Shown here piece after piece: positions 874-43,856 of a stretch of 64,000 nt of DNA (position 1 is the stretch's first letter; every line of letters begins with the position of its first letter). The stretch comes from a virus. Lineage: Duplodnaviria; Caudoviricetes. A program made the position numbers and the translations under genes. A model generated the notes under the pieces. It searched no databases. It was not told the origin of the DNA and was given only the letters and a program-made list of their open reading frames with translations. Location: IMG/VR virus record IMGVR_UViG_3300047157_000186. The stretch is one strand, 5' to 3'.

Positions 874-3800
874 ATGCCAACTGTTTCAAATCAAAACTTA
901 ATCGTAGTATTACCAGAATTAGCTAGGATAGTTAGAGGACAATCATCAAGTATTGGAATCACACTACACCAAGACCACGTAGGTAATCAACTAAACATCG
1001 GGGTAACCGATAACGTAATCGTAGATGTTTATAACGCTGAAAATCAATTAATATATTCAGTAAGTAAATCTAATGGTACCTTATTATTTGGTGCTGCAAA
1101 TACTGATTTACGAGGTGCTATATCACTTGAATTTAGTGCAGAACAAACTGCTGCATTACCATTTGGAGATTTAAATTTCCATGGTGCTATTAAATGTAAA
1201 ATCACAGTAGTTAGAGGAATTACACAAACACAACTACCAACATTAAAACTTGCCAACATCTATGATGCTGGTGATAAAATAGGTGATATAGTTGCAAGTA
1301 GATTCACATTACCAGGTGCTGTATATAAAGTTAAGTCTTTAAGTTCTACAGACAAACCTGCAGGAGGAGAATTAGTTGTAAATGATGAAGATCCTAATGG
1401 TGTTACTAAAATTAGAATTGCTTTAACAGACGATAAAGGATATAGAAATAATTATTTAGAGTCTATATTATTAAATAGAATCAATGTTGACGGAGTTAAA
1501 GTTTCTTTATTCTTAACTAACGTAAATAACAATAGTGAATATTCTGTATTTGAAATCAAAAGCTGGTCATATGTAGATGTATTAAATGTTAATCCTAGTA
1601 ATCCAATAAACAACGATTCAAGTGATGCTATTGAATTACAAGTACAATCAGAAGGAAATTCATTTATCCCTGGATCTGATTACAAGATCGGAGTAGGTGA
1701 TGAACTTGGTATATTTAGTGAATCTTATTCTTCACCTTCAGGTATTTCAATTATACCACAAGGCGCTGTAGCTATTGACGATGTTAATAGTCTTACGTTT
1801 TCAGGAGGTGCAGTTATTAATAATTTAAATGACGGAAAAGTTGAAGTTGTTTTCCCTTCAGTAACAGTTACAACTTCTGGAACATCTGGTTCTTCAGGAA
1901 TTGATGGTTCTTCAGGAATTGATGGTGCTAAAGGTGATCAAGGTGATGCTGGTGTTCAAGGTGAACAAGGTATAAGAGGATTAGATGGAACTTCAGGTAA
2001 AGATGGTGAAACTGGTGGAACTGGAGCACAAGGTCAAGACGGAACTTCAGGCACTGATGGAACAAGCGGAGTTGATGGAGCGCAAGGTCTAAGAGGATTA
2101 GATGGAACTTCAGGTAAAGACGGTTTAGCTGGAACATCTGGTATTAATGGAATTAACGGTCAAGCTGGAACTTCAGGACTTGATGGTGCTAAAGGTGACG
2201 ATGGAACTTCAGGTATTAACGGAGTTAATGGAGTTAATGGAGTTGACGGTGCTAAAGGTGATCAAGGTGAACAAGGTAATCAAGGACCGCAAGGACCTAA
2301 AGGAGATAAAGGTGACGCTGGAGCTAAAGGTGATATAGGTAATGCTGGAACATCTGGTATTAGTGGAACATCAGGAATTAATGGAACATCAGGAATTGAT
2401 GGAACAAGCGGAGTTAATGGAGTTGACGGTGTACAAGGTCTTAAAGGTGATCAAGGTGCAAGAGGTAATGACGGAACATCAGGTAAAGATGGAGCCAATG
2501 GAGTTGATGGAAACCATGGAACTTCAGGAGTTTCAGGTTCTTCAGGAGTTGATGGAACATCAGGTAAAGATGGAATAAACGGAAACGATGGAGCTAAAGG
2601 TGACAGAGGTGATCAAGGACTTCCAGGAAATAATGGTAACGATGGAACTTCAGGAGTTAACGGAACTTCAGGAGTTAACGGAACAAGTGGAGTTGACGGT
2701 GCTAAAGGTGATCAAGGTAATATTGGTAACAATGGTGTAGACGGAACTTCAGGAATTAGTGGAACATCTGGTATTGACGGAACTTCAGGAGTTAATGGAG
2801 TTGACGGAAACGACGGAACTTCAGGTGTTGATGGAACATCAGGAATTAATGGAGCTAAAGGTGATCAAGGTGATCAAGGACCTAAAGGTGATCAAGGCGA
2901 CGCTGGAGCTAATGGAGTTGACGGAAACAATGGAACTTCAGGAGTTAGTGGAACATCTGGTATTGACGGAACTTCAGGAGTTAATGGAGTTGACGGAAAC
3001 GACGGAACTTCAGGACTTTCTGGAACATCAGGAATTAATGGAACATCAGGAATTGATGGAGTTAAAGGTGATCAAGGTGACGCTGGAACTTCTGGAATTA
3101 ATGGAGTTAAAGGTGATCAAGGTGACGCTGGAACTTCAGGAGTTGATGGAACTTCAGGTGTTGATGGTGGCACTGGAACTTCAGGAGTTGATGGAACATC
3201 AGGAATTAATGGAGCTAAAGGTGATCAAGGTGACGCTGGAACTTCAGGAGTTGATGGAACTTCAGGTGTCGATGGAACTTCAGGTGCCGATGGTGGCGCT
3301 GGAACTTCAGGAGTTGATGGAACATCAGGAATTAATGGAGCTAAAGGTGATCAAGGTGACGCTGGAACTTCAGGAGTTAATGGAACATCTGGAACAAATG
3401 GAACTTCAGGAGTTAATGGAACATCAGGAATTAATGGAGTTAAAGGTGATCAAGGTGACGCTGGAACTTCAGGTATTGATGGTGTTGACGGAGCTAATGG
3501 ATCCACTGGACCACAAGGACCGGAAGGGCCGCAAGGGCCGACAGGAGCATCAGGTGCAAATGGATCTGGAATTGCAGGTGGAGGAACAACAGGACAAGCA
3601 CTTGTTAAATCTTCAAATGTTGATTACGAAGTTGAATGGTCAGACGTTGCAACTGGATCAGGTGGAACTTATTACTGTGTAAGAGCAGAATATACTTCAA
3701 CGCAAGCTTTAGGTGGATGTGAATTTATCGATCCAAGTGGATCAGGTGTATTTGAAACATCTAACGCAACTATAGGAACACGTGCTGGTGATAATCAAGA

Positions 3801-4119
3801 ATTTTCATTCAGTGGTCAAAATCAACCACCAAGAGCAATTCTTGTATATGCATATCAAGCCAACAATTCAAGATACGTTATAACGCATTTAGATGGTGGT
3901 GGTAACAACGCATCATTCTATGCACAAGGTATTACAGAATCTGCACACACATCTAACTTTAGTATTGGTAATCAAGTTACAACTGATTTATTCACTAACT
4001 TCAGTGCAGCTAAAATTAAATTAGATTTAAGTATGGGTAATATTGATGCCATAAGAAATGCTGGTGGATTTGGTCAAACAACTAAAGAAGCTCACGCATT
4101 TATAATATTCAAATTTTAA
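874..4119 (+). CDS. collagen-like (Gly-X-Y) fibre protein with globular N- and C-terminal domains
   Basis: About 570 aa of near-continuous Gly-X-Y (GTS/GVD/GAK/GDQ) flanked by non-repetitive domains; GATATATA at 839-846 upstream. Confidence 0.85.
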   Translation: MPTVSNQNLIVVLPELARIVRGQSSSIGITLHQDHVGNQLNIGVTDNVIVDVYNAENQLIYSVSKSNGTLLFGAANTDLRGAISLEFSAEQTAALPFGDLNFHGAIKCKITVVRGITQTQLPTLKLANIYDAGDKIGDIVASRFTLPGAVYKVKSLSSTDKPAGGELVVNDEDPNGVTKIRIALTDDKGYRNNYLESILLNRINVDGVKVSLFLTNVNNNSEYSVFEIKSWSYVDVLNVNPSNPINNDSSDAIELQVQSEGNSFIPGSDYKIGVGDELGIFSESYSSPSGISIIPQGAVAIDDVNSLTFSGGAVINNLNDGKVEVVFPSVTVTTSGTSGSSGIDGSSGIDGAKGDQGDAGVQGEQGIRGLDGTSGKDGETGGTGAQGQDGTSGTDGTSGVDGAQGLRGLDGTSGKDGLAGTSGINGINGQAGTSGLDGAKGDDGTSGINGVNGVNGVDGAKGDQGEQGNQGPQGPKGDKGDAGAKGDIGNAGTSGISGTSGINGTSGIDGTSGVNGVDGVQGLKGDQGARGNDGTSGKDGANGVDGNHGTSGVSGSSGVDGTSGKDGINGNDGAKGDRGDQGLPGNNGNDGTSGVNGTSGVNGTSGVDGAKGDQGNIGNNGVDGTSGISGTSGIDGTSGVNGVDGNDGTSGVDGTSGINGAKGDQGDQGPKGDQGDAGANGVDGNNGTSGVSGTSGIDGTSGVNGVDGNDGTSGLSGTSGINGTSGIDGVKGDQGDAGTSGINGVKGDQGDAGTSGVDGTSGVDGGTGTSGVDGTSGINGAKGDQGDAGTSGVDGTSGVDGTSGADGGAGTSGVDGTSGINGAKGDQGDAGTSGVNGTSGTNGTSGVNGTSGINGVKGDQGDAGTSGIDGVDGANGSTGPQGPEGPQGPTGASGANGSGIAGGGTTGQALVKSSNVDYEVEWSDVATGSGGTYYCVRAEYTSTQALGGCEFIDPSGSGVFETSNATIGTRAGDNQEFSFSGQNQPPRAILVYAYQANNSRYVITHLDGGGNNASFYAQGITESAHTSNFSIGNQVTTDLFTNFSAAKIKLDLSMGNIDAIRNAGGFGQTTKEAHAFIIFKF
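1879..3585 (+). repeat. 9-bp-unit degenerate tandem repeat encoding Gly-X-Y, with longer near-identical blocks
   Basis: Recurring GGAACTTCAGGA, GGTGATCAAGGT and GGAGTTGATGGA units; a long block near 2740-2820 recurs near 2930-3010. Confidence 0.9.
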
Positions 4120-9466: not shown

Positions 9467-12190
9467 ATGTCTCAATTGAAACTAAAACAAATACTTGACT
9501 TTTTATCTTCTTCACCAACAACAGGTGAGGTATTGTCATATAATTCAAGTACCGGAAAGTATGAAAACCAACAATTACCAAACACGTTTGGTCTTCCTTA
9601 TGTTTATAATAGCGCAACAAATCCCACGACAGTTTCTTCTGGTGATTTAGCGTTTGATAATCCTAGTAATCCTAGTAAAATAATTATAAGTGAAACTAAT
9701 GCTAGAGGTGGTTCTGCAACTGTAACATTAAATGCTGCAGTCGCTTCATCGAATAATTATAAATCTATTATTGTATTAGCAAAATCAACTGACGGTAATG
9801 CAAATAAATCATTCTATGTAACAGGAAACACAACTGCTTCTGGACAAAGAACATTTAGCTTACAACCTATTTCAAGTTCTAATTGGAACAATGTTAGTGA
9901 TAATGATTCTTTGTTTATGTTTATCCAACCTATCGGTGATGTTGGAACATCAGGAACTTCAGGATCAAATGGTTCAAGTGGAAGTTCAGGAACTAATGGA
10001 ACGAGCGGTGTAAGTGGAACTTCAGGTTCTTCAGGAACTAATGGATCAAGTGGATCTTCAGGAACTAATGGAACTTCAGGAACTGATGGAACTAGCGGAT
10101 CTTCAGGTTCAAGTGGAAGTTCAGGAACAGATGGAACTTCAGGAACGAATGGAACTTCAGGTACTAATGGATCAAGTGGATCTTCAGGAACTGATGGAAC
10201 AAGTGGAGTTAAAGGTGATCAAGGTGATAATTATAGTGGAGCAACTTTATCTGGGAATAATTTAATATTGACGCATTCTGTCAATGGAGCTGAAAATGTA
10301 GGTAGAGTAGTATATGTTGGAACTTCAGGAACTGATGGTTCAAGCGGAAGTTCAGGTTCAAGCGGATCTTCAGGAATTACAGGTACAATTGCAGTAGGAA
10401 CAGTATCTACTGGTTTAGAAAATACTCCAGTAAGTGTTACTAATACTGGAACATCAACTGCAGCAGAATTTGATTTTACTATTCCTGTTGGTGCAACTGG
10501 AGCAAAAGGTGCTCCTGGAACTCCAGCTATTAATGGAACTAGTGGATCTTCTGGATCTAGTGGTGTTAAAGGAGACAAAGGAGCTCCAGGTACAAGTGGT
10601 ACTGATGGAACTTCAGGAACTAACGGAAGTTCAGGAACTGACGGTTCAAGTGGAAGTTCAGGTTCAAGTGGAAGTTCAGGAACTGATGGAACTTCAGGAA
10701 CGAATGGAACTTCAGGAACGAATGGAACTTCAGGAACTGATGGATCAAGTGGTTCTTCTGGAACTGATGGAAGTTCAGGAACTGACGGAACTTCAGGAAC
10801 GAATGGAACTTCAGGAACGAATGGAACTAGCGGATCTTCAGGTTCAAGTGGAAGTTCAGGTACTGATGGAACTTCAGGAACTAATGGAACTTCAGGAACG
10901 AATGGAACTAGTGGAACTAATGGAAGTTCAGGTTCTTCAGGAACTGACGGAACTAGTGGAACTAACGGAAGTTCAGGAACTGATGGAACTTCTGGTACAA
11001 ATGGTACAAGTGGAACGAATGGAACAAACGGAAGTTCAGGTTCTTCAGGAACAAATGGAACAAACGGATCTTCAGGATCAAGTGGATCTTCAGGTGCACA
11101 AGGTAATCCAGGTTGGGGTGTTTCAATGCAAGGACAAGTAGCTACATCATCAAATTTACCAACATCTGGTAATTCAGATGGTGATGCATATATAGTACAA
11201 TCAGACGATTCTCTTTGGGTATTTACACAAGCAGACGGTTGGATTGGCGGTGGTTCTATTCAAGGACCAGCTGGTTCTTCAGGAACTAATGGAACAAATG
11301 GAAGTTCAGGTTCTTCAGGAACTGATGGAACTTCAGGATCAAGTGGAAGTTCAGGTACTGATGGAACTTCAGGAACGAATGGAACAAGTGGAACTGATGG
11401 AACTTCAGGATCAAGTGGATCAAGTGGAAGTTCAGGTACTGATGGAACTTCAGGAACGAATGGAACAAGTGGTACTGATGGAACTTCAGGATCAAGTGGA
11501 TCAAGTGGAAGTTCAGGTACTGACGGAACCTCAGGAACGAATGGAACTTCAGGTTCTTCAGGAACTGATGGAACAAGTGGAACTAATGGAACTTCAGGAT
11601 CAAGTGGATCAAGCGGAACTTCAGGAACGAATGGAACTAGTGGAACGAATGGAACTTCAGGAACGAATGGAACTTCAGGAACGAATGGAACTTCAGGTTC
11701 TTCAGGAACGAATGGAACAAACGGATCTTCTGGATCGAGTGGTTCTTCAGGTTCTTCAGGTCTAAAAGGTAATACTGGTACTTCTAATACCTATGCAACT
11801 GCGATGAATCAACATACAAAAACAGATTCAAATGTTGAGCATCATGATTTATATTTAACAGGTGCTTTAAAAAGAGATTTTATATCTGTTAACGGTGTTG
11901 GCGGTGTTTATGACATCAAACCTGATCAAGGTGACGCATTCGTATTTACAGCAACTGGTTTAATTGATATCACAATGTCTAATATAGGTTCTGACAACGT
12001 AGGTCAATCTGGAACTATAGTAATCATAAACGGTGCAGGTGCAGGATACAATGCATTACCATCTTATATGAAAACACCTTCAGGTGCTGACATTCAATGG
12101 GTAACTACTCAAGGTGCAGTATCTATTATATCGTATATTATAATAGATGTTGACGCTGTATTAGTTAACTACATTGGAAATTTTGCGTAA
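9467..12190 (+). CDS. Gly-X-Y repeat (collagen/polyglycine-like) fibre protein
   Basis: Four Gly-X-Y segments dominated by GTS/GTN/GTD/GSS, separated by short globular inserts; GATATATA at 9431-9438 upstream. Confidence 0.85.
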   Translation: MSQLKLKQILDFLSSSPTTGEVLSYNSSTGKYENQQLPNTFGLPYVYNSATNPTTVSSGDLAFDNPSNPSKIIISETNARGGSATVTLNAAVASSNNYKSIIVLAKSTDGNANKSFYVTGNTTASGQRTFSLQPISSSNWNNVSDNDSLFMFIQPIGDVGTSGTSGSNGSSGSSGTNGTSGVSGTSGSSGTNGSSGSSGTNGTSGTDGTSGSSGSSGSSGTDGTSGTNGTSGTNGSSGSSGTDGTSGVKGDQGDNYSGATLSGNNLILTHSVNGAENVGRVVYVGTSGTDGSSGSSGSSGSSGITGTIAVGTVSTGLENTPVSVTNTGTSTAAEFDFTIPVGATGAKGAPGTPAINGTSGSSGSSGVKGDKGAPGTSGTDGTSGTNGSSGTDGSSGSSGSSGSSGTDGTSGTNGTSGTNGTSGTDGSSGSSGTDGSSGTDGTSGTNGTSGTNGTSGSSGSSGSSGTDGTSGTNGTSGTNGTSGTNGSSGSSGTDGTSGTNGSSGTDGTSGTNGTSGTNGTNGSSGSSGTNGTNGSSGSSGSSGAQGNPGWGVSMQGQVATSSNLPTSGNSDGDAYIVQSDDSLWVFTQADGWIGGGSIQGPAGSSGTNGTNGSSGSSGTDGTSGSSGSSGTDGTSGTNGTSGTDGTSGSSGSSGSSGTDGTSGTNGTSGTDGTSGSSGSSGSSGTDGTSGTNGTSGSSGTDGTSGTNGTSGSSGSSGTSGTNGTSGTNGTSGTNGTSGTNGTSGSSGTNGTNGSSGSSGSSGSSGLKGNTGTSNTYATAMNQHTKTDSNVEHHDLYLTGALKRDFISVNGVGGVYDIKPDQGDAFVFTATGLIDITMSNIGSDNVGQSGTIVIINGAGAGYNALPSYMKTPSGADIQWVTTQGAVSIISYIIIDVDAVLVNYIGNFA

Positions 12191-12215: not shown

Positions 12216-15200
12216 ATGAAGAATATAGGATTTTCAAGAATCGACTTTTGGAGTACCGGAAGTGCACAGAATACATCTAAGGGTACACTTGTAGCTAAGA
12301 ATACTACTTGGGCTACTTCTAAAACTACATCTGAAAATAGAAATACTTCGAGAACTACTGAAAAGGTACGTAATACTAGTCAATCTACAACAACAACGTG
12401 GATAACTACATGGTCAACTAGTAAATCAACTACAACAACTTTCAATACATCTCGTAGTACTAGTACTGTATATGCAACTTCAAGATCAACGACAACATCA
12501 TGGACAACATCATGGAACACATCTAGAGAAACATCTTTAGAAACTGATAGAACTACAACAACAACATGGTCGACTTCTAAAAACACGTCGCAATCAACTG
12601 AGAGAACTACAACTACTACATGGACAACTAGTTGGACAACTAGTCAATCTACATTGTACCCTGTTGAAACTACTTGGAACACAAGTCAATCCACATCTAG
12701 AACGACAACTACAGTATACACTACATATTGGACCACTTCTTGGAATACAAGTAAATCAACGATTACTTCTTATATTACTACATATACAACAACGTGGTCA
12801 ACTACTAGAGCTACGACAACGTCATATAATACAACTTGGACAACTAGTAAATCGACAACTAGATCTACTAGTCGTGACACTACAACAACTTTTAATACAA
12901 ATCAGTCAACGTCTAGAAGCACAACGACTGTATATAATACAACTTGGATTACAAGTCAGACAACGTCTAGAAGTACTGAACATTCAACAATAACTAAATT
13001 TAGTACAAGTCAGTCAACGTCTCATTCGACAACGACCGTATATAATACAACTTGGATTACAAGTCAGACAACAAGTAGAGGAACAGAACATTCGACAACG
13101 ACTACGTTTAATACAAGTCAGTCAACTACTAAATCTACGACGACTACATTTACAACAACATGGTCAACTAGCAAATCAACTTCTAGATCTACTACTAAAT
13201 CGACAACGACAACGTTTAATACAAACCAATCGACAAGTAGATCCACTAAAACAACATGGACTACTACTTGGTCGACTAGTAAATCAACATCTAAAGGAAC
13301 TACAAGAAATACCACAACAACATGGGTAACAAGTAGACCAACTGAACATACAACGACAACTACATTTAATACGACGTGGTCAACTAGTAAATCGACAACT
13401 ACTACTTTTAACACTACATGGAAAACTTCATGGAACACAACTAGAAGTACTAATCGTTCTACAACAACTACATTCAATACTAGTCAATCAACTTCGCATT
13501 CTACAACAACTGCGTGGACAACTACTTGGGTGACAAGTCAAGGAACTAGTAGAGAAACAAGTAAGAATACAACAACTAGATTTATTACTAGTAGAAGTAC
13601 AGAACATGTCACTACTACGACGTTTAATACAACATGGGCAACTAGTAAATCTACTACAACTTCATGGACTACAACTTTTGGTACAACTTTCAATACAACT
13701 AGATCTACTAATAAAAGTACAACGACTACGTTTAATACAACATGGTCAACTAGTAGAGCAACAACAACTTCATGGACAACTTCATGGAACACAACTGTAC
13801 TGACTTCCAGATCTACTTATAAAAACACAACGACTACGTTTAATACAACATGGTCAACTAGCAGATCGACAACGACAACGTTTAATACGACTAGATCAAC
13901 TACGACTACATTTAATACAAGTCAATCAACTAATAAGAATACAACAACTAGTTGGAATACGACTAGATCAACGACAACGACTTGGAACACAACTAGGGCT
14001 ACGACGACTGTATATAATACATCATGGAATACAACTAAGTCAACGACGACTACGTTCAATACAACTAGGTCAACAACAACGACGTTTAATACAAATAAGT
14101 CAACGACAACTGTATTTAATACATCTTGGAATACAACTAGATCTACTACAACTACATTTGCAACCAGTAAATCGACAACAACAACATTTGTAACTAGTAG
14201 AGGTACAGAACATTCGACAACAACAACTTATAATACAACTAGATCTACATCAACTAGTTGGAATACAACTAAGTCAACAACGACTGTGTATAATACTTCA
14301 TGGAATACAACTAAGTCAACGACAACAACGTTTTCAACTAGTAAATCGACGACAACAACGTTTTCAACTAGCCAATCAACTAATAAGAATACGACAACAA
14401 CGTTTAATACGACTAGATCTACATTAACTACATGGATTACAAGTAGATCAACTGAACGTGTGACAACAACAACATGGAATACAACGCGTTCAACAACGAC
14501 TACGTTTAATACAACGCGTTCAACAACGACTACGTTTGCAACTAGTAAATCTACAACGACTACGTTTAATACATCTTGGAATACAAGTAAGAATACAACA
14601 ACAACGTTTGCAACGAGTAAATCCACTAGAACTACTTGGACAACTTCATGGAACACTGCGCGAAATACAACGACAACATGGAATACAACTAAGTCAACGA
14701 CAACTACGTTTGCAACAAGTAGAGGTACATCACGTGCTACGACAACAACATGGATAACTAGTAAGAATACAACGACAACGTTTGCAACTAGTAAATCTAC
14801 AACGACAACGTTTGCAACTAGTAAATCTACGACAACAACATATAAAACAAGTTGGAATACTGCAATATCAACGACAACAACATTTGCCACGTCTAGAGTA
14901 ACTGATAGAAATACTAGTAAATCGACAACAACAACGTTTAATACTGGATACTCTAGATCAACAACTAAATCAACATCATGGAGTACATTAGTTCCTGCAG
15001 ATAATAGTTCAGGTGGAGGTGCAGGTGTTTTGACTTATTGGAACACAACAGTTACATATAACACATCTTTTTCAACCGCGTTATACGTCAATACATCTAG
15101 AGGAACTTCTAGAAACACTGTTGAAGAATGTATAGTTGAAGGAACACTAGTTCATATTGCCGAAGGTGAACAAAGACTAGTTGAAACTTTAGTACATGGT

Positions 15201-15665
15201 CAAAGTATTTTAACTATGGATGGATCGTTTAATGTAGATAACGTTAGTGATTTAAGTCTTATCAGAGAAGAAGAAGTATACACGAATTCATTATCTAATG
15301 AACATACTGCTGTAAATATTTGGAGAGCAGATGTTATAGGAACGGTTAATATAAATGACGGACAATTAAGAACTACCATGGGACACATACACATCATAAA
15401 AAGAGATGGTGAGTGGCAAGCAAGGACAGCGGATCAGTTAGAAATTGGTGATGTTATGTTTAAGCTTGACTATGGAGAATTTTTGATAGAGTCTTTAGAA
15501 ATGGATGAAGTTAATCAATATACAGTTTATAAATTAGACGTAGAACCTAACGATACATTCTTTGCAAATGGAATTTTAACACATAATAAAAAAGATGCAT
15601 TATGTTCACACGAGGATAAATGTACGCGAGGGCATCCATGTGAGGATAGATTTTACCCTTGTTAA
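12216..15665 (+). CDS. giant Thr-rich repeat protein with C-terminal Hint (intein-like) domain
   Basis: About 900 aa of STTTT(F/W)NT(T/S)(R/K)-type repeats, then CIVEGTLV...TTMGH...VYKLDVEPNDTFFANGILTHN and a 25-aa Cys-rich tail. Confidence 0.85.
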   Translation: MKNIGFSRIDFWSTGSAQNTSKGTLVAKNTTWATSKTTSENRNTSRTTEKVRNTSQSTTTTWITTWSTSKSTTTTFNTSRSTSTVYATSRSTTTSWTTSWNTSRETSLETDRTTTTTWSTSKNTSQSTERTTTTTWTTSWTTSQSTLYPVETTWNTSQSTSRTTTTVYTTYWTTSWNTSKSTITSYITTYTTTWSTTRATTTSYNTTWTTSKSTTRSTSRDTTTTFNTNQSTSRSTTTVYNTTWITSQTTSRSTEHSTITKFSTSQSTSHSTTTVYNTTWITSQTTSRGTEHSTTTTFNTSQSTTKSTTTTFTTTWSTSKSTSRSTTKSTTTTFNTNQSTSRSTKTTWTTTWSTSKSTSKGTTRNTTTTWVTSRPTEHTTTTTFNTTWSTSKSTTTTFNTTWKTSWNTTRSTNRSTTTTFNTSQSTSHSTTTAWTTTWVTSQGTSRETSKNTTTRFITSRSTEHVTTTTFNTTWATSKSTTTSWTTTFGTTFNTTRSTNKSTTTTFNTTWSTSRATTTSWTTSWNTTVLTSRSTYKNTTTTFNTTWSTSRSTTTTFNTTRSTTTTFNTSQSTNKNTTTSWNTTRSTTTTWNTTRATTTVYNTSWNTTKSTTTTFNTTRSTTTTFNTNKSTTTVFNTSWNTTRSTTTTFATSKSTTTTFVTSRGTEHSTTTTYNTTRSTSTSWNTTKSTTTVYNTSWNTTKSTTTTFSTSKSTTTTFSTSQSTNKNTTTTFNTTRSTLTTWITSRSTERVTTTTWNTTRSTTTTFNTTRSTTTTFATSKSTTTTFNTSWNTSKNTTTTFATSKSTRTTWTTSWNTARNTTTTWNTTKSTTTTFATSRGTSRATTTTWITSKNTTTTFATSKSTTTTFATSKSTTTTYKTSWNTAISTTTTFATSRVTDRNTSKSTTTTFNTGYSRSTTKSTSWSTLVPADNSSGGGAGVLTYWNTTVTYNTSFSTALYVNTSRGTSRNTVEECIVEGTLVHIAEGEQRLVETLVHGQSILTMDGSFNVDNVSDLSLIREEEVYTNSLSNEHTAVNIWRADVIGTVNINDGQLRTTMGHIHIIKRDGEWQARTADQLEIGDVMFKLDYGEFLIESLEMDEVNQYTVYKLDVEPNDTFFANGILTHNKKDALCSHEDKCTRGHPCEDRFYPC
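15129..15587 (+). other. Hint / bacterial intein-like domain, no homing endonuclease
   Basis: Cys1, block B TxxH (TMGH), block F (VYKLDVEPNDTFFANGI) and terminal His-Asn; about 153 aa. Confidence 0.85.
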
Positions 15666-15724: not shown

Positions 15725-18649
15725 ATGCCTACTACTTATTTTAATACAACATGGTTAACTGCTGGCTCTAGAAATACGTACGTATCTACTACAAAGACTA
15801 GGTCTACTTCCAGATACACGTCATATAATAGGGTAACTTCGAGAAATACGGCGAAGACTACATATTGGAACGTAAGTACAAGTAAGGCAACGACAACATC
15901 ATGGACTACTAAAGTTACTACTTCATGGAACACAACTAGGGGAACAACGACATCGAGAAGCACAAACCAACAAACATCTCATGCAACAACAACTACATGG
16001 AATACAACTAGAGCTACAACGACTACATGGAATACAACTAGAACAACCGAAACAAAATGGAACACAACTAAGTCAACGACTACATCATTTAATACATCTT
16101 GGAATACAACTCGAGCTACAACTACAACGTTTGCAACTAGTAAGGCAACGGCAACAACATTTAGTACAAGTCAGTCAACTGCTAAAGACACAACGACAAC
16201 ATGGAATACAACTAGAGCAACATTAACAACATGGGTCACAAGTAGATCAACTGAACGTGCTACGACAACAACATGGAATACAACTCGAGCTACGACAACA
16301 ACGTTCAATACAACTCGTGCAACGACAACTACATTTGCAACTAGTAAATCGACAACGACTGTATTTAATACATCTTGGAATACAAGTAAGAATACGACTA
16401 CTACATTTGCAACTAGTAAATCCACTAGAACTACTTGGACAACTTCATGGAATACAACTCGAGCTACAACTACAACGTTTAATACAACTCGAGCTACAAC
16501 TACCACGTGGTCTACAAGTCAGTCAACGTCTCATTCGACAACGACTACGTTTGTAACTAGTAAAAATACAACGACTACGTTTAAAACTAGTAAATCAACG
16601 ACTACATCGTATAACACATCTTGGAATACAACTAGGTCAACGACAACAACGTTTAATACTTCCAAGTCAACAACGACTACGTTTATAACTAGTAGGTCAA
16701 CAGAGCGTGTTACTACAACTACATGGGCAACTAGTAAATCTACGACTACTACATTTGCAACAAGTAAATCTACTACAACAACATTTGTAACTAGTAGAGG
16801 AACAGAACATTCCACGACTACTACATTTGCAACTAGTAAATCGACAACAACTACGTTTATAACTAGCCAGTCAACTAGAACTACTTGGACTACAACATGG
16901 TCAACTAATAGATCAACGACAACAACGTTCAATACAACTCGTGCAACGACAACTACATTTAACACAAGTCAATCGACAAGTAAATCCACTAAAACAACAT
17001 GGACAACTTCTTGGAATACTGTCAGAGGAACTAGTAAAGTAACTAGTAAATCGACAACGACTACGTTTAACACAAGTCAATCGACGAGTAGAGCAACTAC
17101 AACAACATGGACTACTACTTGGGCAACATCAAGAAATACAACTAGAGGAACTAGTAAAACGACAACGACTACGTTTAACACAAGTCAATCGACTGAAAGA
17201 GAAACGACTACTGTTTATAACACGTCATGGAACACAACGAGAACTACGATAACTTCATACACTACTTCATGGACTACTTCATGGAATACAAGTAGAGGCA
17301 CATCGAAAACTACAACAACAGTTTATAATACATCATGGTCAACTAGTAAATCAACTGTAACTACATTCAATACTACTTGGATAACAAATCAGAATACAAC
17401 GAGATCTACTTCTAGAACAACAACTACTACTTTTAATACAAGTCAGTCAACTTCTAGAACAACGACTACGTCGTATAACACATCTTGGAACACTACAAGA
17501 TCCACTGAAACTGCATGGACTACTTCATGGGTGACAACGTTTAATACAAACAGGTCAACGTATAAAAATACAACGACTACGTTTACAACAACATGGTCAA
17601 CTAGTAAATCTACAACGACTACGTTTACAACTACGTTCACAACAACGTTTAATACTAATCAGTCAACAAGTAAATCTACAACGACTACATTTAATACAAC
17701 GTGGTCAACTAGTAGAGCAACGACTACGAGTTATACAACTTCATGGACTACTTCATGGAACACAACTAGAGGAACAGAACATGTGACTACTACTGTTTAT
17801 AACACGTCATGGAACACAACTAGATCGACAACTACAGTTTACAATACTTCATGGACAACTTCATGGAACACAACTAGAGGAACAGAACATTCGACTACGA
17901 CTACGTTTACAACAACATGGTCAACTAGTAAATCAACTGTAACTACGTTCAACACTACTTGGACTACGTCATGGAACACAACTTATGGAACGTCTCATTC
18001 AACTACGACAACGTTTAATACGTCTCAGTCTACAAATCATGGAACGTCTCATTCGACAGTAACTATATGGAGTACATCTAGAGGAACTAACAAAGGAACA
18101 GAACACGCAACGACAACTGCATGGACAACGACTTGGGAAACTAGTAGAATTACGAACTATTCACGTACGACATCATGGACTACGCAATATCAAACTAGTC
18201 AGTCAACGGTAACTACATTTAACACAACGTGGTTAACAACATTTAATACCAATCAGTCAACAACAACTGCATGGGTGACATCGTGGGTGACAACATTTAG
18301 TACGTCTCAAACAACGTCTAAAACGACAACGACTACATTTAACACAAGTCACTCGACAACGACAACGTTTAATACGACTAGATCAACTACGACTACATTC
18401 AATACGAATGCAGCTACATCTAAATCGACAACGACAACGTGGTCAACTATTTATAGTGTTACTACTTCGTGGAATACTGCATGGAACACAACAACAACGT
18501 GGAACACGACGAGATCTACAACAAGTGCTATTACTACAACGTGGAGTACAGATTACGAAGTGCAAGAAACTTGGTATTCAACTAACGCACCATTAGATGT
18601 TTATAATACAAATAGACAATGGAGAGTAAACAGTTATAACGGTAACTAG
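15725..18649 (+). CDS. giant Thr-rich repeat protein, paralogue of 12216..15665
   Basis: Same 10-residue-type Thr/aromatic/basic repeat over nearly the whole 974 aa; AATATATA at 15696-15703 upstream. Confidence 0.85.
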   Translation: MPTTYFNTTWLTAGSRNTYVSTTKTRSTSRYTSYNRVTSRNTAKTTYWNVSTSKATTTSWTTKVTTSWNTTRGTTTSRSTNQQTSHATTTTWNTTRATTTTWNTTRTTETKWNTTKSTTTSFNTSWNTTRATTTTFATSKATATTFSTSQSTAKDTTTTWNTTRATLTTWVTSRSTERATTTTWNTTRATTTTFNTTRATTTTFATSKSTTTVFNTSWNTSKNTTTTFATSKSTRTTWTTSWNTTRATTTTFNTTRATTTTWSTSQSTSHSTTTTFVTSKNTTTTFKTSKSTTTSYNTSWNTTRSTTTTFNTSKSTTTTFITSRSTERVTTTTWATSKSTTTTFATSKSTTTTFVTSRGTEHSTTTTFATSKSTTTTFITSQSTRTTWTTTWSTNRSTTTTFNTTRATTTTFNTSQSTSKSTKTTWTTSWNTVRGTSKVTSKSTTTTFNTSQSTSRATTTTWTTTWATSRNTTRGTSKTTTTTFNTSQSTERETTTVYNTSWNTTRTTITSYTTSWTTSWNTSRGTSKTTTTVYNTSWSTSKSTVTTFNTTWITNQNTTRSTSRTTTTTFNTSQSTSRTTTTSYNTSWNTTRSTETAWTTSWVTTFNTNRSTYKNTTTTFTTTWSTSKSTTTTFTTTFTTTFNTNQSTSKSTTTTFNTTWSTSRATTTSYTTSWTTSWNTTRGTEHVTTTVYNTSWNTTRSTTTVYNTSWTTSWNTTRGTEHSTTTTFTTTWSTSKSTVTTFNTTWTTSWNTTYGTSHSTTTTFNTSQSTNHGTSHSTVTIWSTSRGTNKGTEHATTTAWTTTWETSRITNYSRTTSWTTQYQTSQSTVTTFNTTWLTTFNTNQSTTTAWVTSWVTTFSTSQTTSKTTTTTFNTSHSTTTTFNTTRSTTTTFNTNAATSKSTTTTWSTIYSVTTSWNTAWNTTTTWNTTRSTTSAITTTWSTDYEVQETWYSTNAPLDVYNTNRQWRVNSYNGN

Positions 18650-19693: not shown

Positions 19694-19720
19694 AAACCTA
19701 CACTCGTGTGGGTTTTTTTT
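19694..19720 (+). terminator. Rho-independent terminator
   Basis: AAACCTACAC...GTGTGGGTTT plus a T-tract. Confidence 0.7.
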
Positions 19721-19732
19721 GCTACATTAATA

Positions 19733-20752
19733 ATGAGAATATTATTTTATGCGGGCTATCAAAAGAATAAATTTGATGGTGATACAAATGAAGGATTAGC
19801 AGGAACTGAAATTGCTATAATTAATATAGCCGAAGAGATGGTTAAATTTGGTTATAAGGTTGTGGTTTCTGGTGAAGTAAAAGATTCTGGTTTAATTAAT
19901 GGAGTAGAATGGATATCAACACATGAATTACATGAAAAATATTTTGATCAGTTTGATTATATTATATCTGCAAGTTATATTCATTTTTTAAAAGAGTTTG
20001 AAAAATATTCAGCAAAGAAAGTATTTTGGGCACATAATACACATCATCACCCATGGTGGAATCACGAAGTGTTAGAAGACGCAAACCTTTTAACACAACA
20101 AGTTGATCATACAATTTGTTTGACTAATTGGCATAAGAATCACTGGGCACATACATATAATATACCTTTAAATAAAATCTCGGTGATTGGTAATGCCATT
20201 GATCCTTCAACATTTAGTGGTACTCCTGAAAAAGTTAAAGGTAAATTCATATATAGTTCTGCACCCGAACGTGGCTTATTGGAATTATTAAAAAACTGGC
20301 CAAAGATAAAAACTATAATGCCACATGCAACACTAGACATTTATTCTCCTGGATATTCTATAGCAAATCATACTGACTATTCATTTAATAAGTTTAAAGA
20401 AGTAACATGTCACGGTAGTGTAGATCAAAAAACATTACATAATGCCATGCTACGTGCAGAATATTGGTGTTATATAACTGATTATGAAGAAACATATTGT
20501 ATAACTGCACTTGAAATGCAATATGCCAAAGTATTACCTATTGTTACTAAAGTTGCTGCATTAAAAGAAACTGTAAATAGTGGAGTTATCTTAGAAAGAA
20601 ATGAAACAAATTGGAATCAGGCTATACAAATACTAGGTACACTAAGTAGTGGACTTAAGGATAAATCAATTAATGATGCATATAAATGGTCTAAACAACA
20701 AACATGGAATGTTAGATCATATGATTGGAAAAACATATTAGAATCTATATGA
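19733..20752 (+). CDS. GT-B glycosyltransferase (GT4-like)
   Basis: FIYSSAPERGL and EETYCITALEMQ (E-x7-E); ATG 19733 preferred over GTG 19706, which lies inside the terminator. Confidence 0.85.
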   Translation: MRILFYAGYQKNKFDGDTNEGLAGTEIAIINIAEEMVKFGYKVVVSGEVKDSGLINGVEWISTHELHEKYFDQFDYIISASYIHFLKEFEKYSAKKVFWAHNTHHHPWWNHEVLEDANLLTQQVDHTICLTNWHKNHWAHTYNIPLNKISVIGNAIDPSTFSGTPEKVKGKFIYSSAPERGLLELLKNWPKIKTIMPHATLDIYSPGYSIANHTDYSFNKFKEVTCHGSVDQKTLHNAMLRAEYWCYITDYEETYCITALEMQYAKVLPIVTKVAALKETVNSGVILERNETNWNQAIQILGTLSSGLKDKSINDAYKWSKQQTWNVRSYDWKNILESI

Positions 20753-22083
20753 AAATAGATAAAATTTATATTATAAGCTTGAACGCTGGAGATCCAAGCA
20801 TTCAAAGAAGTATTGCCGAGAGGGTAGATCAACTTGGTATGCCATATTCTGTAGCGTGGGAAATAGTTCAAGGTTTTGATGGAACTTCAGGCAATTTATT
20901 AGATGGACACAGTGTATATAATTTATGGAATTTAGGATCTGATTCATGGAATGATTGGTGGAAAAGAGATGTTACTGGCGGAGAAGCAGGTTGTGCAATT
21001 AGTCACTTAAATATATGGAAAAATATAATAGAAGACAATATCAATTGTGCATTAATACTAGAAGATGATTTTGTTTCAGTAGCTCCACTTACAAATCCAG
21101 TTATTCCAAACACAGAATGGGATATTGCATTTTTAGGTAGAAATGCTATATGTCCTAAGGATGAAAAAAGAATTGATGTAAGTAATAAATGGGTAACAGC
21201 ACTTAGTAGTTATAATACACATGCATATGTAATTAAAAGAGACGCTGCGAAAACGCTAGTCAATGATTACAACTTTCAACAAAATCTAATTGCGCCCGAT
21301 GAATTCTTAACGGCAACATATACAGATCATAGAAGACAAGATATTAATATACTGTTTCCACCAAAACTTAAAGCGATAGCTCCAGTTAATAATTGGATAG
21401 AACAAAATAGACCACACGAAAAATCCACGACAGAACCAAATGATGCCAATATTAATTTATTGAAAAAACAACCTTATTTCGAAATACTAGATGACAGTGA
21501 TTGGGATTCATGGAAATCAAAGTATGTAAACGAAACAGTGGCTAAGGGTGAATATGATTTAATGATAGATGATATAGGAAATAATATATATGAATTTCCA
21601 TTATTTACCGAAAAGTTCTGTAAAGAAGCAGTTGCTTTAGCAGAGGTTATGAATAAGTGGACAAAAGATAGACATGAATTTTATCCAACAAATGATGTCT
21701 TATTACCAGAAATAGGATTAGATAATATTTATAATAGAGTTATAAAAGAAATAGTTTCCCCACTTTGTATACATTTATGGGAATTAGAAGGTGCAGGTTG
21801 GGATAATATGAATACCGAAAACTTTATGGTAAGATATACTACTGATAGACAATCTCATTTAAGTTTACATCATGACTTTAGTCATATTACAATGGTAGTA
21901 AAATTAAATGATGAGTTTGATGGTGGCGGCACGTGGTTTCCAAAATATAAAATATTAGCAAATCCAAAATTAGTAGGTACTGCAACTATTCACCCTGGAA
22001 TGATCACACATAAACATGGTGCCAGACCAATACATAGTGGGAAAAGATACATCAACGTATCATTTATGAGAAAGAATAATTAA
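20749..22083 (+). CDS. GT25-family glycosyltransferase fused to a PLOD-type 2OG-Fe(II) lysyl hydroxylase domain
   Basis: N-terminal IYIISLN, GEAGCAISHLNIWKNI, ALILEDD; C-terminal FMVRY...LHHDFS...GGGTWF...HPGMITHKHG...RYINVSF; ATGA overlap with the upstream gene. Confidence 0.85.
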   Translation: MKIDKIYIISLNAGDPSIQRSIAERVDQLGMPYSVAWEIVQGFDGTSGNLLDGHSVYNLWNLGSDSWNDWWKRDVTGGEAGCAISHLNIWKNIIEDNINCALILEDDFVSVAPLTNPVIPNTEWDIAFLGRNAICPKDEKRIDVSNKWVTALSSYNTHAYVIKRDAAKTLVNDYNFQQNLIAPDEFLTATYTDHRRQDINILFPPKLKAIAPVNNWIEQNRPHEKSTTEPNDANINLLKKQPYFEILDDSDWDSWKSKYVNETVAKGEYDLMIDDIGNNIYEFPLFTEKFCKEAVALAEVMNKWTKDRHEFYPTNDVLLPEIGLDNIYNRVIKEIVSPLCIHLWELEGAGWDNMNTENFMVRYTTDRQSHLSLHHDFSHITMVVKLNDEFDGGGTWFPKYKILANPKLVGTATIHPGMITHKHGARPIHSGKRYINVSFMRKNN

Positions 22084-41610: not shown

Positions 41611-42144
41611 ATGGACCCTTTTTATTTAAGAGACAATATGCCTAGAATTCCAGTAGAATTAATATACATGCAAATGGCTTACCAAATAGCCAAATTATCT
41701 TACGCTAAACGTAGACGCGTTGGATGTATTATTGTAAAAGATACTCAGATTATATCAACGGGTTACAATGGTACGCCATATGACTTTGATAATGACTGTG
41801 AAGAGGAACAAATCAGATATGTAGACAATCCTGATCATATGCAAATTCTAATAGAGAAGGGATATGAATGTGAAGGTGTTTGTTGTTCTAAAGAGGTAAC
41901 TAAACGAGAAGTATTGCATGCAGAATCAAATGCGTTGGCAAAAATCAGTAAATCTACACTTTCTTCTGAGGGTGCAGATATGTACGTGACCACATGTCCA
42001 TGCTTTGACTGCGCAAAATTAATTATTCAATCAGGTATTAAGCGAGTATTTTATTCAGAAGACTATAGAGATATGGGCGGAGTAGAATTATTAAAGAAAG
42101 CTGGTATCGAAGTAAATGAAGTTATATGTTGGAACGATCTATAG
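41611..42144 (+). CDS. dCMP deaminase
   Basis: VGCIIVKD, GYNGTP, LHAESNAL, TTCPCFDCAK. Confidence 0.95.
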   Translation: MDPFYLRDNMPRIPVELIYMQMAYQIAKLSYAKRRRVGCIIVKDTQIISTGYNGTPYDFDNDCEEEQIRYVDNPDHMQILIEKGYECEGVCCSKEVTKREVLHAESNALAKISKSTLSSEGADMYVTTCPCFDCAKLIIQSGIKRVFYSEDYRDMGGVELLKKAGIEVNEVICWNDL

Positions 42145-43856
42145 ATCAAATTATTCAAAAAACATTAGACGAAAATGTATTTGGAGAATCTTTTACATTT
42201 AGAAAAGGACAAAGAGAAATTGTTACTAAGATATGTGAAACATATTTAGAGGATCCAAAATCAACATTAGTCATTGATGCACCCACTGGTGCTGGTAAAT
42301 CACTTATAGCTATGTGGTCAGCACATGTATTAAAAGAACTTGGTAATAGAGGCTATATGGTAACTAGTGACCTGAGTCTCCAGGATCAATATGAGTCTGA
42401 CTTTTATAAATATGGATTACGATGGCCATCAATTAAGGGAGTTGATAATTATGAATGTTCTGTTAATGGTCTGCCATTTTCCCTCGGAGATTGTAAACTA
42501 AAAGGAATGGGATATGAACAAGCAGAATCTTTATCATGTTATGGATCATGTGAATATCTTCAAAATAGACGAAGAGCGATAGATCAACCTATCTCTTTAT
42601 TAAATTATTCTTTTTGGTTAATTCAAAGAAATTATGTTGAGGCCAAAATGGAACAAGAAGAAAGAACAGTGCCATTTGAACAACGTGATTTTGTTTTCTT
42701 TGACGAAGCACATAGAGTTGACGATATAGTTCAAAGTCATTTTAGCCCTAGAATAGATCAAACTATTGTAGACAAAATGGTAACTTTAAATAGATTTGCA
42801 AGTAAGCAAGGATTTCAAGAAGCCACATATACAAAAAATAAAATACAACATCTTGTAAATGAAATGATGTCAGGTGACAAACATGATGTGTTTTCGGCTA
42901 TGAGTGAATTTGAAAGAATATTGCACGGTTTTGGTAAAGTCAGAAAGATTGCTAATAAATTAGCTAAAAGAAGATACGGAAATACTGGAGTACCAAAAGA
43001 TTGGCAAACTTCATTTGGACATTTTGATAGACTTAAGGACGTTCATTGTAAAGTTGAAGATTATTTAAGTTTGATCAAAGAAGTTGGAATTGATAAAATG
43101 GTTTTAGATCAAAACGAACATGAAGCAAAATTCATGTGTGTAGAAGAAAGTTTAATGATTAATAAATATCTACATGAGAAGGCTGACTTTAAAGTTTTTA
43201 TGAGTGCAACTATTGGAGATCCTAAGGCATTTGTTAAGATAATGGGAATTAAGAACGCTAAGTTTATCAGAATGGACAATGTGTTTAATTATGATAAATC
43301 TCCTATTGTATTTGTTAATAGACATAAGCTTTCGTTTAGAGAAAGAGAAAAAAGTTTACCTAAAGTTGTAGAAATCTTAGATCAGATTATATCTAAACAT
43401 AAAGGTCAGCGTGGTGTTATACATACTGGATCTTATGCATTTACTAATTTTATAAAACAAAATTCTAAACATACATTTAGACTTATGGATTATGAAAACT
43501 CCAAAGAGAAATCGGTAATGTTAGATTTGTTTAAAAAGAAAGAAGGTGCTGTATTGATGGGACCTTCGTTATTAGAAGGTTTAGATTTAAAGGATGATAT
43601 AAGTAGATTTCAAATATTCTTTAAAGTTCCATACCCATCATTAGGTGATCCTTTAATTAAAGCTAAAATGCAAACGTCAAATGAGTGGTACGATTGGAAA
43701 ACTGGAATTAGCATTATGCAAGGTGTTGGAAGATCTGTAAGAAATGAAAATGATTGGGCAGTGACTTATGTTTTAGATGCATGCTTCAGAAGTTTGATAT
43801 ATAAACCAGGATTCTTCCCTCCAAGTTTCACAGAGAGGGTTAAGACTATAAAATAA
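42126..43856 (+). CDS. DinG/YoaA-like SF2 helicase
   Basis: APTGAGKS, Cys cluster, LLNYS, FDEAH, FMSATI, KVPYP, QGVGRSVR...D.A...LD.CF. Confidence 0.9.
   Translation: MLERSIDQIIQKTLDENVFGESFTFRKGQREIVTKICETYLEDPKSTLVIDAPTGAGKSLIAMWSAHVLKELGNRGYMVTSDLSLQDQYESDFYKYGLRWPSIKGVDNYECSVNGLPFSLGDCKLKGMGYEQAESLSCYGSCEYLQNRRRAIDQPISLLNYSFWLIQRNYVEAKMEQEERTVPFEQRDFVFFDEAHRVDDIVQSHFSPRIDQTIVDKMVTLNRFASKQGFQEATYTKNKIQHLVNEMMSGDKHDVFSAMSEFERILHGFGKVRKIANKLAKRRYGNTGVPKDWQTSFGHFDRLKDVHCKVEDYLSLIKEVGIDKMVLDQNEHEAKFMCVEESLMINKYLHEKADFKVFMSATIGDPKAFVKIMGIKNAKFIRMDNVFNYDKSPIVFVNRHKLSFREREKSLPKVVEILDQIISKHKGQRGVIHTGSYAFTNFIKQNSKHTFRLMDYENSKEKSVMLDLFKKKEGAVLMGPSLLEGLDLKDDISRFQIFFKVPYPSLGDPLIKAKMQTSNEWYDWKTGISIMQGVGRSVRNENDWAVTYVLDACFRSLIYKPGFFPPSFTERVKTIK

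Follow-up and report, generated by a model that had tools for sequence, protein, structure and literature searches.

We analysed a 64,000-nucleotide stretch of viral DNA (IMG/VR record IMGVR_UViG_3300047157_000186; hereafter the window), whose source is an uncultured marine jumbo phage. At positions 12216 to 15665 it encodes a Thr-rich protein that ends in a Hint domain, the self-cleaving fold of inteins and Hedgehog proteins, followed by a short tail with four cysteines. A2 denotes below an alignment of 104 relatives of the Hint domain, on which the sequence profile and the AlphaFold model are also based. The features of the gene are as follows, with residues numbered along the whole protein and with N-extein denoting the part before the Hint domain.

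12216..15665, + strand: whole gene, Thr-rich repeat protein with Hint domain and Cys tail, 1149 aa (open reading frame (ORF) listing, translation)
12216..15128, + strand: N-extein, aa 1-971, beginning MKNIGFSRIDFW and ending ...NTVEE (composition; N-terminal motif conserved in relatives)
15129..15587, + strand: Hint domain, aa 972-1124, 153 aa, similar to type A bacterial intein-like (BIL) domains (profile, AlphaFold, Foldseek, substitution rates)
15129..15131, + strand: Cys972, that is Cys1, the predicted thioester-forming nucleophile, with Glu971 at -1 (invariant in A2)
15375..15386, + strand: block B, T1054-M-G-H1057 (His invariant and Thr the majority residue in A2)
15582..15587, + strand: block G, His1123-Asn1124, predicted site of Asn cyclisation (invariant in A2)
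15588..15593, + strand: Lys1125-Lys1126 (+1, +2), candidate acyl acceptor (Lys enrichment in family domains)
15588..15662, + strand: 25-aa tail, aa 1125-1149, with Cys1130, Cys1136, Cys1142 and Cys1149 (C-x5-C-x5-C-x6-C, Cys being the final residue)
15663-15665, + strand: stop codon of the Hint-capped gene

A Hint domain at the end of a Thr-rich protein

Translation of 12216-15662 places TTMGH at residues 1053-1057 (nt 15372-15386), and the Hint domain ends in ...GILTHN, with Lys-Lys next. The N-extein consists of repeats with ~44% Thr and 17% Ser, W/F/Y at regular spacing and no Cys, and the five cysteines of the 1149-aa protein are Cys972 and the four in the tail. At the Cys frequency of the window's long + strand ORFs (0.6%), at least four Cys in 25 residues has a probability of ~1.6e-5. 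The N-extein gave no Pfam or PHROG matches, homologue searches with its non-repetitive end (aa 905-975) and with the N-terminus (aa 1-60) returned 0 matches, and no protein-atlas look-alikes of the tail or of the Thr-rich part went beyond lead level. The architecture of Thr-rich part, Hint domain and Cys tail is shared by relatives that are 82% identical and by 37 metagenome loci.

Taken alone, the window sequence is a poor match to known Hint models: Intein_splicing scores 21.8 bits against a Pfam cutoff of 35.8, Hint_2 is also sub-threshold, and PDB sequence matches of the single domain are weak. The family tells far more. Exhaustive HMMER searching of 1.84 billion representatives recovered 699 relatives at E<=1e-3 and 156 at E<=1e-10, and no columns of A2 are invariant other than those of Cys1, the block B His and the terminal His-Asn. 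The A2 profile matched BIL and intein structures in the PDB at E values spanning 4e-19 to 1e-7, led by BIL2 of the Tetrahymena BUBL protein (6TMM/6Y75; E 4e-19) and the Clostridium thermocellum BIL (2LWY; E 1.5e-12), with inteins at 3e-8 or weaker. With A2, AlphaFold yielded a model with a mean predicted local distance difference test (pLDDT) score of 87.6 and a predicted template modelling score of 0.82; this alignment-based model was used instead of the single-sequence prediction (pLDDT 31). Foldseek ranked BIL2 and 2LWY at the top (template modelling score 0.85, normalised to target), then inteins and Hedgehog (1AT0), with probability 1.0 for all of these, and BFVD contains many phage proteins with the same fold that are auto-named 'Hint domain containing protein'.

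The HMMER family, the profile matches and the AlphaFold and Foldseek results together show that the assignment is not a chance motif match. The Thr-rich protein does carry a true Hint domain at its C-terminus, one whose closest characterised counterparts are BIL domains. It combines the Hint beta-fold with the N-terminal nucleophile Cys972 and the block B TxxH that define the superfamily. Like type A BILs, it pairs Cys1 with a C-terminal His-Asn and has no +1 nucleophile, and its nearest relatives in both sequence and structure are BIL domains, not inteins; since Pfam holds no BIL model, there is no curated threshold for this class. Its length of 153 aa is that of a mini-intein and leaves no space for a homing endonuclease. 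A first-pass annotation of the same DNA, made from the sequence alone, had described a Hint domain capping the Thr-rich protein, with Cys1, TxxH and His-Asn intact, neither a +1 nucleophile nor an endonuclease, and a 25-aa four-Cys tail. The translation, profile, model and structural matches uphold each of these points (Cys972, T1054/H1057, H1123-N1124, Lys1125), and the relatives described below share the Cys framework of the tail.

Other assignments were considered and rejected. A canonical class 1 intein does not fit Lys1125 at +1, the C-terminal position or the failure to find intact Hint-less alleles among the 26 distinct relatives. Hedgehog-type sterol transfer is at odds with the invariant His-Asn and with a Hint domain followed by only a 25-aa Cys tail, and the Hedgehog model PF01079 matches only 16 of the 104 relatives, weakly. 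The HINT peptidase of polymorphic toxins (PT-HINT, PF07591) weakly matches 57 of the 104 relatives, with no match to the window sequence itself; moreover, a toxin would not fit into a 25-aa tail, no immunity gene is present, and the next gene encodes a 974-aa Thr-rich protein. A Peptidase S74 chaperone was discarded for want of any such Pfam or PHROG match, and a decaying intein remnant because the catalytic residues are invariant and the ratio of nonsynonymous to synonymous substitution rates (dN/dS) is 0.22-0.27.

Relatives, tails and genomic setting

Across the wider family of 699 representatives, with relatives encoded on 94 IMG/VR stretches, the N-terminal parts differ (collagen-like, PT-linker, FN3-like or Thr-rich), and the Hint domain sits mostly at the extreme C-terminus of phage proteins. 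In the 127 proteins with a complete domain, the tail after His-Asn has a median length of 6 aa; it measures at most 10 aa in 101, 1-2 aa in 27 and at least 20 aa in only 15. Among the 162 domains whose C-terminal end is intact, the terminal Asn is present in all and His-Asn in 158, whereas +1 is C or S in only 3. Lys occupies +1 or +2 in 146 of the 162 (90%), against a Lys background of 3.8%. The commonest -1 residue across this wider family is Gly.

For the Thr-rich protein itself, the conserved N-terminus (MKNIGFSRIDFW...) was used as query, and 6 viral and 55 metagenome loci were fetched. The Hint domain is present in 37 of the 55 metagenome loci, which provide 26 distinct Hint-plus-tail sequences. 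All 26 have Lys at +2, 23 have K or R at +1, and 22 have Asp or Glu at -1. The number of Cys per tail is always even (six in 16 sequences, four in nine, two in one), the N-extein is Cys-free in 25 of the 26, and a second Cys within the Hint domain is absent from 24. The common six-Cys form reads C..C-x5-C-Y-D-P-C..G-C-x3-C, and the window tail is a short four-Cys variant of this shared framework. A second Hint-capped gene on a related 150-kb contig (L098, G002:C1:63779-67276) encodes a short collagen-like segment, a PT-rich linker and a six-Gly run; it too closes with Cys1...VHN, followed by a 13-aa tail with neither Cys nor Lys at +1/+2, indicating that the Cys tail travels with the Thr-rich protein and not with the genome.

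Every intact member of the Thr-rich family carries both Hint domain and tail, and no intact allele without a Hint domain, be it one that stops after the N-extein or one that joins the tail straight to it, was found among the viral and metagenome loci. The Hint-less copies are cut by contig ends or apparently frameshifted within the repeats, with the exceptions of L111, which stops inside the Hint domain, and L148, which we left unassigned. In L103, L105, L115 and L141, the Thr-rich gene ends early in sequence that resembles a shifted repeat frame. Assembly or sequencing frameshifts in the repeats are the likely cause of these four early ends, which could also reflect real phase variation.

Comparison of the window with its relatives L008 and L010 gave the dN/dS of 0.22-0.27 for the Hint domain, a range indicating that the domain is under purifying selection. 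The tail evolves differently. Between the window and L010, identity is 83% in the Hint domain and 35% in the tail, where all four Cys are nonetheless retained; dN is 0.66 in the tail and 0.11 in the Hint domain, and synonymous sites in the tail are saturated. With only ~10 synonymous sites to judge from, this divergence looks like cassette replacement rather than point divergence. The distant members P0043 and P0068 each have a tail paralogous to a Cys module located directly before the Hint domain, which is therefore flanked by two module copies; the similarity covers short segments (E 1e-4 and 4e-5).

Published phages offered little for comparison. Tblastn of the window's Hint domain and tail against 50,697 phage records returned 0 matches, and a more typical family member gave one weak match, annotated as a large intein; no cultured phage with the Hint-cap module was found in these searches. 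Literature searches likewise found no description of Hint-capped phage fibres.

Several other layouts were observed in the wider family. Tandem arrays of two or three Hint domains occur in P0009, P0066, P0090, P0148 and P0151 and at L066, L071, L078 and L087; linkers such as K-G-G, K-F and I-K-P-P-P leave intervening 'exteins' of 1-5 residues, usually with Lys. In the giant proteins of L053, L064 and L073 (IMG/VR), the layout is intein-like: the Hint domain lies within the chain and has Ser at +1, and beyond it come a poly-Gly run and a Cys-rich C-extein that exceeds 1400 aa. At L029:4001-4456 and L033:4001-4456 (IMG/VR), Hint and His-Asn-x-Lys are followed by ~85 aa containing SDRRLKKNI, a motif that suggests the S74-type self-cleaving chaperone domains of phage tailspikes; if so, two distinct self-processing modules stand in series at one fibre end. 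Many tails from subfamilies with otherwise unrelated tails close with G-[I/M/L]-[R/K/Q] or G-F-E at the extreme C-terminus (for example L136, L125, L154 and L123; P0004, P0011, P0033, P0038 and P0109), an ending that the window's own tail does not have.

Around the Hint-capped gene, the window contains the following genes.

874-4119, + strand: collagen-like paralogue of the 9467-12190 gene, matching many tail-fibre PHROGs
9467..12190, + strand: collagen-like (Gly-X-Y) fibre protein, directly upstream
15725..18649, + strand: second Thr-rich protein, 974 aa, with neither Hint domain nor Cys tail
19706-22083, + strand: glycosyltransferase or hydroxylase genes
42126-43856: helicase
59943-61772: baseplate wedge gene

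We infer a fibre role for the Thr-rich protein from its collagen-like neighbours only. A six-frame profile search found a single Hint domain in the window, and larger related contigs hold two Hint-capped genes each. Glycosyltransferase genes follow Hint-capped fibre genes both here (19706-22083) and at the unrelated P0037 locus (L005:7971-13037; GlcNAc transferase, HtrL/YibB-like, epimerase), which hints at O-glycosylation of the Thr- or PT-rich fibre proteins. When 20 kb of the window were compared with phages by megablast, 0 matches were returned. The helicase is closest to that of an uncultured 462-kb metagenomic phage (LR756500; 46% identity), with the Prevotella Lak megaphages at 31%; these affinities point to a jumbo phage, not a T4-like one, and the host is possibly a member of the Bacteroidota. 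CheckV completeness estimates of 12% for a related 47-kb contig and 53% for a related 150-kb contig also indicate a jumbo genome.

Possible processing of the fibre end

BIL domains are characterised by the lack of a +1 nucleophile, and those of type A end in His-Asn (PMC4031507). Their flanks can be ligated by aminolysis, in which Asn cyclisation liberates an amine that then attacks the N-terminal thioester (PMC4031507). As summarised in PMC8616854, Tetrahymena BIL2 instead joins the C-terminus of its N-extein to a Lys epsilon-amine as an isopeptide, and varied acceptors are possible. In polymorphic toxins, the HINT peptidase frees a variable C-terminal module (PMC3482391). The first-pass annotation had assumed that Hint domains of this kind cleave and do not splice. 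That premise is only partly right: type A BILs do mostly cleave, but they can also ligate by aminolysis, and BIL2, by the account in PMC8616854, forms a Lys isopeptide.

We tentatively propose, with rather less than even confidence, that the C-terminal 178 residues form an autoprocessing module of the type A BIL kind, domesticated within a fibre-like virion protein, in which the Hint domain would excise itself and transfer the tail onto the end of the fibre. Cys972 would attack the Glu971-Cys972 peptide bond to yield a thioester, and the acyl group, that is the entire Thr-rich protein, would then move to an amine of the tail. Two acceptors are conceivable: the conserved Lys1126 (or Lys1125) through its epsilon-amine, following Tetrahymena BIL2, or the alpha-amine that cyclisation of Asn1124 would free, following type A BILs. 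Asn1124 cyclisation would cut the His-Asn|Lys bond and release the 153-aa Hint domain. The fibre would thus end in a short, fast-evolving tail, in which two disulfides would probably form after the virion reaches oxic seawater; the even Cys counts and release into such water suggest disulfides, and Zn could instead be bound by the tail's four Cys and two His.

The comparative data carry this proposal. The terminal Asn is needed only for C-terminal cleavage and is kept even where the tail is 1-2 aa long, which suggests that this cleavage matters. Together with the near-universal Lys at +1/+2, the ever-present tail and its even Cys number, the conserved Asn favours transfer over a tail made to be discarded. 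These patterns, and the copy of the tail module before the Hint domain in P0043 and P0068, argue against the tail being a mere by-product; they do not reveal its final location.

Several points weigh against transfer, and some of them speak for cleavage alone, in which the Hint domain would be a self-removing cap, the thioester would be hydrolysed and the mature fibre would end at ...VEE, with the Hint discarded together with its tail or the tail released as a free 25-aa peptide. Acidic -1 residues tend to steer inteins toward N-terminal cleavage by hydrolysis; the residue here is Glu, and it is acidic in 22 of the 26 members of the Thr-rich family. Type A BILs yield mainly cleavage products in vitro (PMC4031507), and the HINT of polymorphic toxins is a releasing peptidase placed just before variable modules (PMC3482391). 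The tail is also far more variable than the Hint domain, in the cassette-like manner seen with L010, and self-cleaving C-terminal chaperones of the Peptidase S74 type cap other phage fibres; at L029 and L033 the Hint domain directly precedes the tail with the possibly S74-type motif SDRRLKKNI. The Lys at +1/+2 could serve catalysis or folding and not act as acceptor, the purpose of a ligation is unclear where the tail is a single Lys, and the tail, at pLDDT 60-69 in the AlphaFold model, is unsurely placed relative to the active site. Processing is predicted here from sequence and model, and its occurrence, its order, the acceptor, the disulfides and the fibre role of the protein are all inferred. 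Cleavage alone is a serious possibility, which we would place below even odds and slightly behind transfer; it leaves unexplained why domains with next to nothing after the terminal Asn still keep this residue, why Lys at +1/+2 is near-universal, and why a discarded tail would keep an even Cys framework in all 26 distinct relatives.

It is also conceivable, though improbable, that an outside nucleophile resolves the thioester, so that the fibre end becomes covalently coupled to a Lys or N-terminus of a virion protein (for example the 974-aa Thr-rich protein), to a small molecule or to an amine on the host surface. Ligation to the virion, the partner fibre or a small molecule was the idea put forward in the first-pass annotation. 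BIL2 is described in PMC8616854 as passing its N-extein to Lys residues of different substrates, two Thr-rich genes adjoin here of which only one has a Hint domain, and the related contigs carry two Hint-capped virion genes each. However, no acceptor can be named, and the conserved Lys lies in cis at the active site, where an intramolecular reaction is kinetically simpler.

We consider it equally doubtful that no processing takes place and that the Hint domain remains part of the virion, serving as a knob for structure or binding, or is a decaying remnant of a selfish mini-intein. A degenerate Hint half does occur in a separate ORF of a neighbouring lineage: L093:7246-8307, a 353-aa ORF between two Thr-rich genes of a related contig, has an unrelated N-terminal domain (methyltransferase-like by eye) and a C-terminal part with a block B-like motif but neither Cys1 nor His-Asn, so Hint-derived domains can persist without catalysis. 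Against this, the catalytic residues of the family are all invariant, dN/dS is low (0.22-0.27), and all intact family members have the endonuclease-free Hint domain, without exception at the C-terminus, whereas mobile inteins are distributed sporadically.

Taken more broadly, the transfer proposal would mean that phage fibres possess a built-in, ATP-independent ligase, in which a BIL-type Hint domain and its flanking Lys place a disulfide-framed, apparently swappable tip on the C-terminus; we offer this wider picture as a possibility that falls well short of an even chance. If ligation does occur, it would provide a natural Lys-directed protein ligase and a new post-translational route to build and diversify fibre ends, of interest for protein engineering and, because the most variable part lies at the fibre end, for phage host range. 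If the domain only cuts, it would be a second, independent solution to a self-removing fibre cap. The present clade is the best test case, since its tails of 25-50 aa with Cys could be traced by mass spectrometry, compared with the usual 1-10 residues.

Comparison with known systems

Inteins, Hedgehog, bacterial toxins and a ciliate ubiquitin-like system already provide examples of Hint and BIL chemistry. The end of the present fibre-like protein is probably matured by thioester chemistry, for which the literature searches found no description in phage fibres. What is new here is a BIL-type Hint domain in a phage virion setting, with a Cys-framed tail common to relatives, in a family of hundreds of representatives from viral metagenomes.

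With the Peptidase S74 domain of phage tailspikes and fibres, the analogy is limited to function: it too is a C-terminal domain that removes itself after assembly, but its fold and chemistry are unrelated (a Ser-Lys dyad, with no thioester), and it has no sequence similarity to the phage Hint domain. PT-HINT proteins (Zhang et al. 2012, PMC3482391) share the order of stalk, HINT and variable C-terminal module. Unlike them, the phage gene encodes a tail too small for a toxin domain and is followed by a structural Thr-rich gene rather than an immunity gene.

The Hedgehog/Hog proteins resemble the phage protein in their N-terminal cargo, their C-terminal Hint domain and a thioester that an outside nucleophile can resolve, and the fold match to 1AT0 agrees with this. 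Hedgehog requires a sterol-recognition region after its Hint domain, and it is not known to have a conserved terminal His-Asn or to undergo Asn cyclisation. In the phage domain, by contrast, His-Asn is invariant, and a 25-aa Cys tail stands in place of a sterol-recognition region.

Type A BILs (Amitai 2003; Dassa 2004; 2LWY, Aranko 2013; all as reported via PMC4031507) share with the phage domain Cys1, the block B His, the C-terminal His-Asn and the absence of a +1 nucleophile. They cleave at both ends and can ligate by aminolysis, activities that are predicted for the phage domain. The described examples belong to secreted or variable proteins of bacteria, in which true C-terminal domains usually follow. 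The phage family differs in capping virion proteins, in its tails of mostly 1-10 aa, in the conserved Lys at +1/+2 and, in this clade, in the Cys-framed tail.

The closest counterpart is BIL2 of the Tetrahymena thermophila BUBL1 polyubiquitin-like locus (6TMM, 6Y75), the best profile and Foldseek match to the phage domain (Chiarini et al. 2021, as summarised in PMC8616854). Both are mini Hint domains without an endonuclease. According to that summary, the BIL2 thioester is resolved on a Lys epsilon-amine, and the phage family retains Lys at +1/+2. BIL2 is eukaryotic, lies between ubiquitin-like domains and shares only ~15-17% identity with the window domain. The phage Hint domain, unlike BIL2, is terminal, with a 971-aa Thr-rich protein as its cargo, a 25-aa Cys tail as its C-flank and an activity that is predicted.

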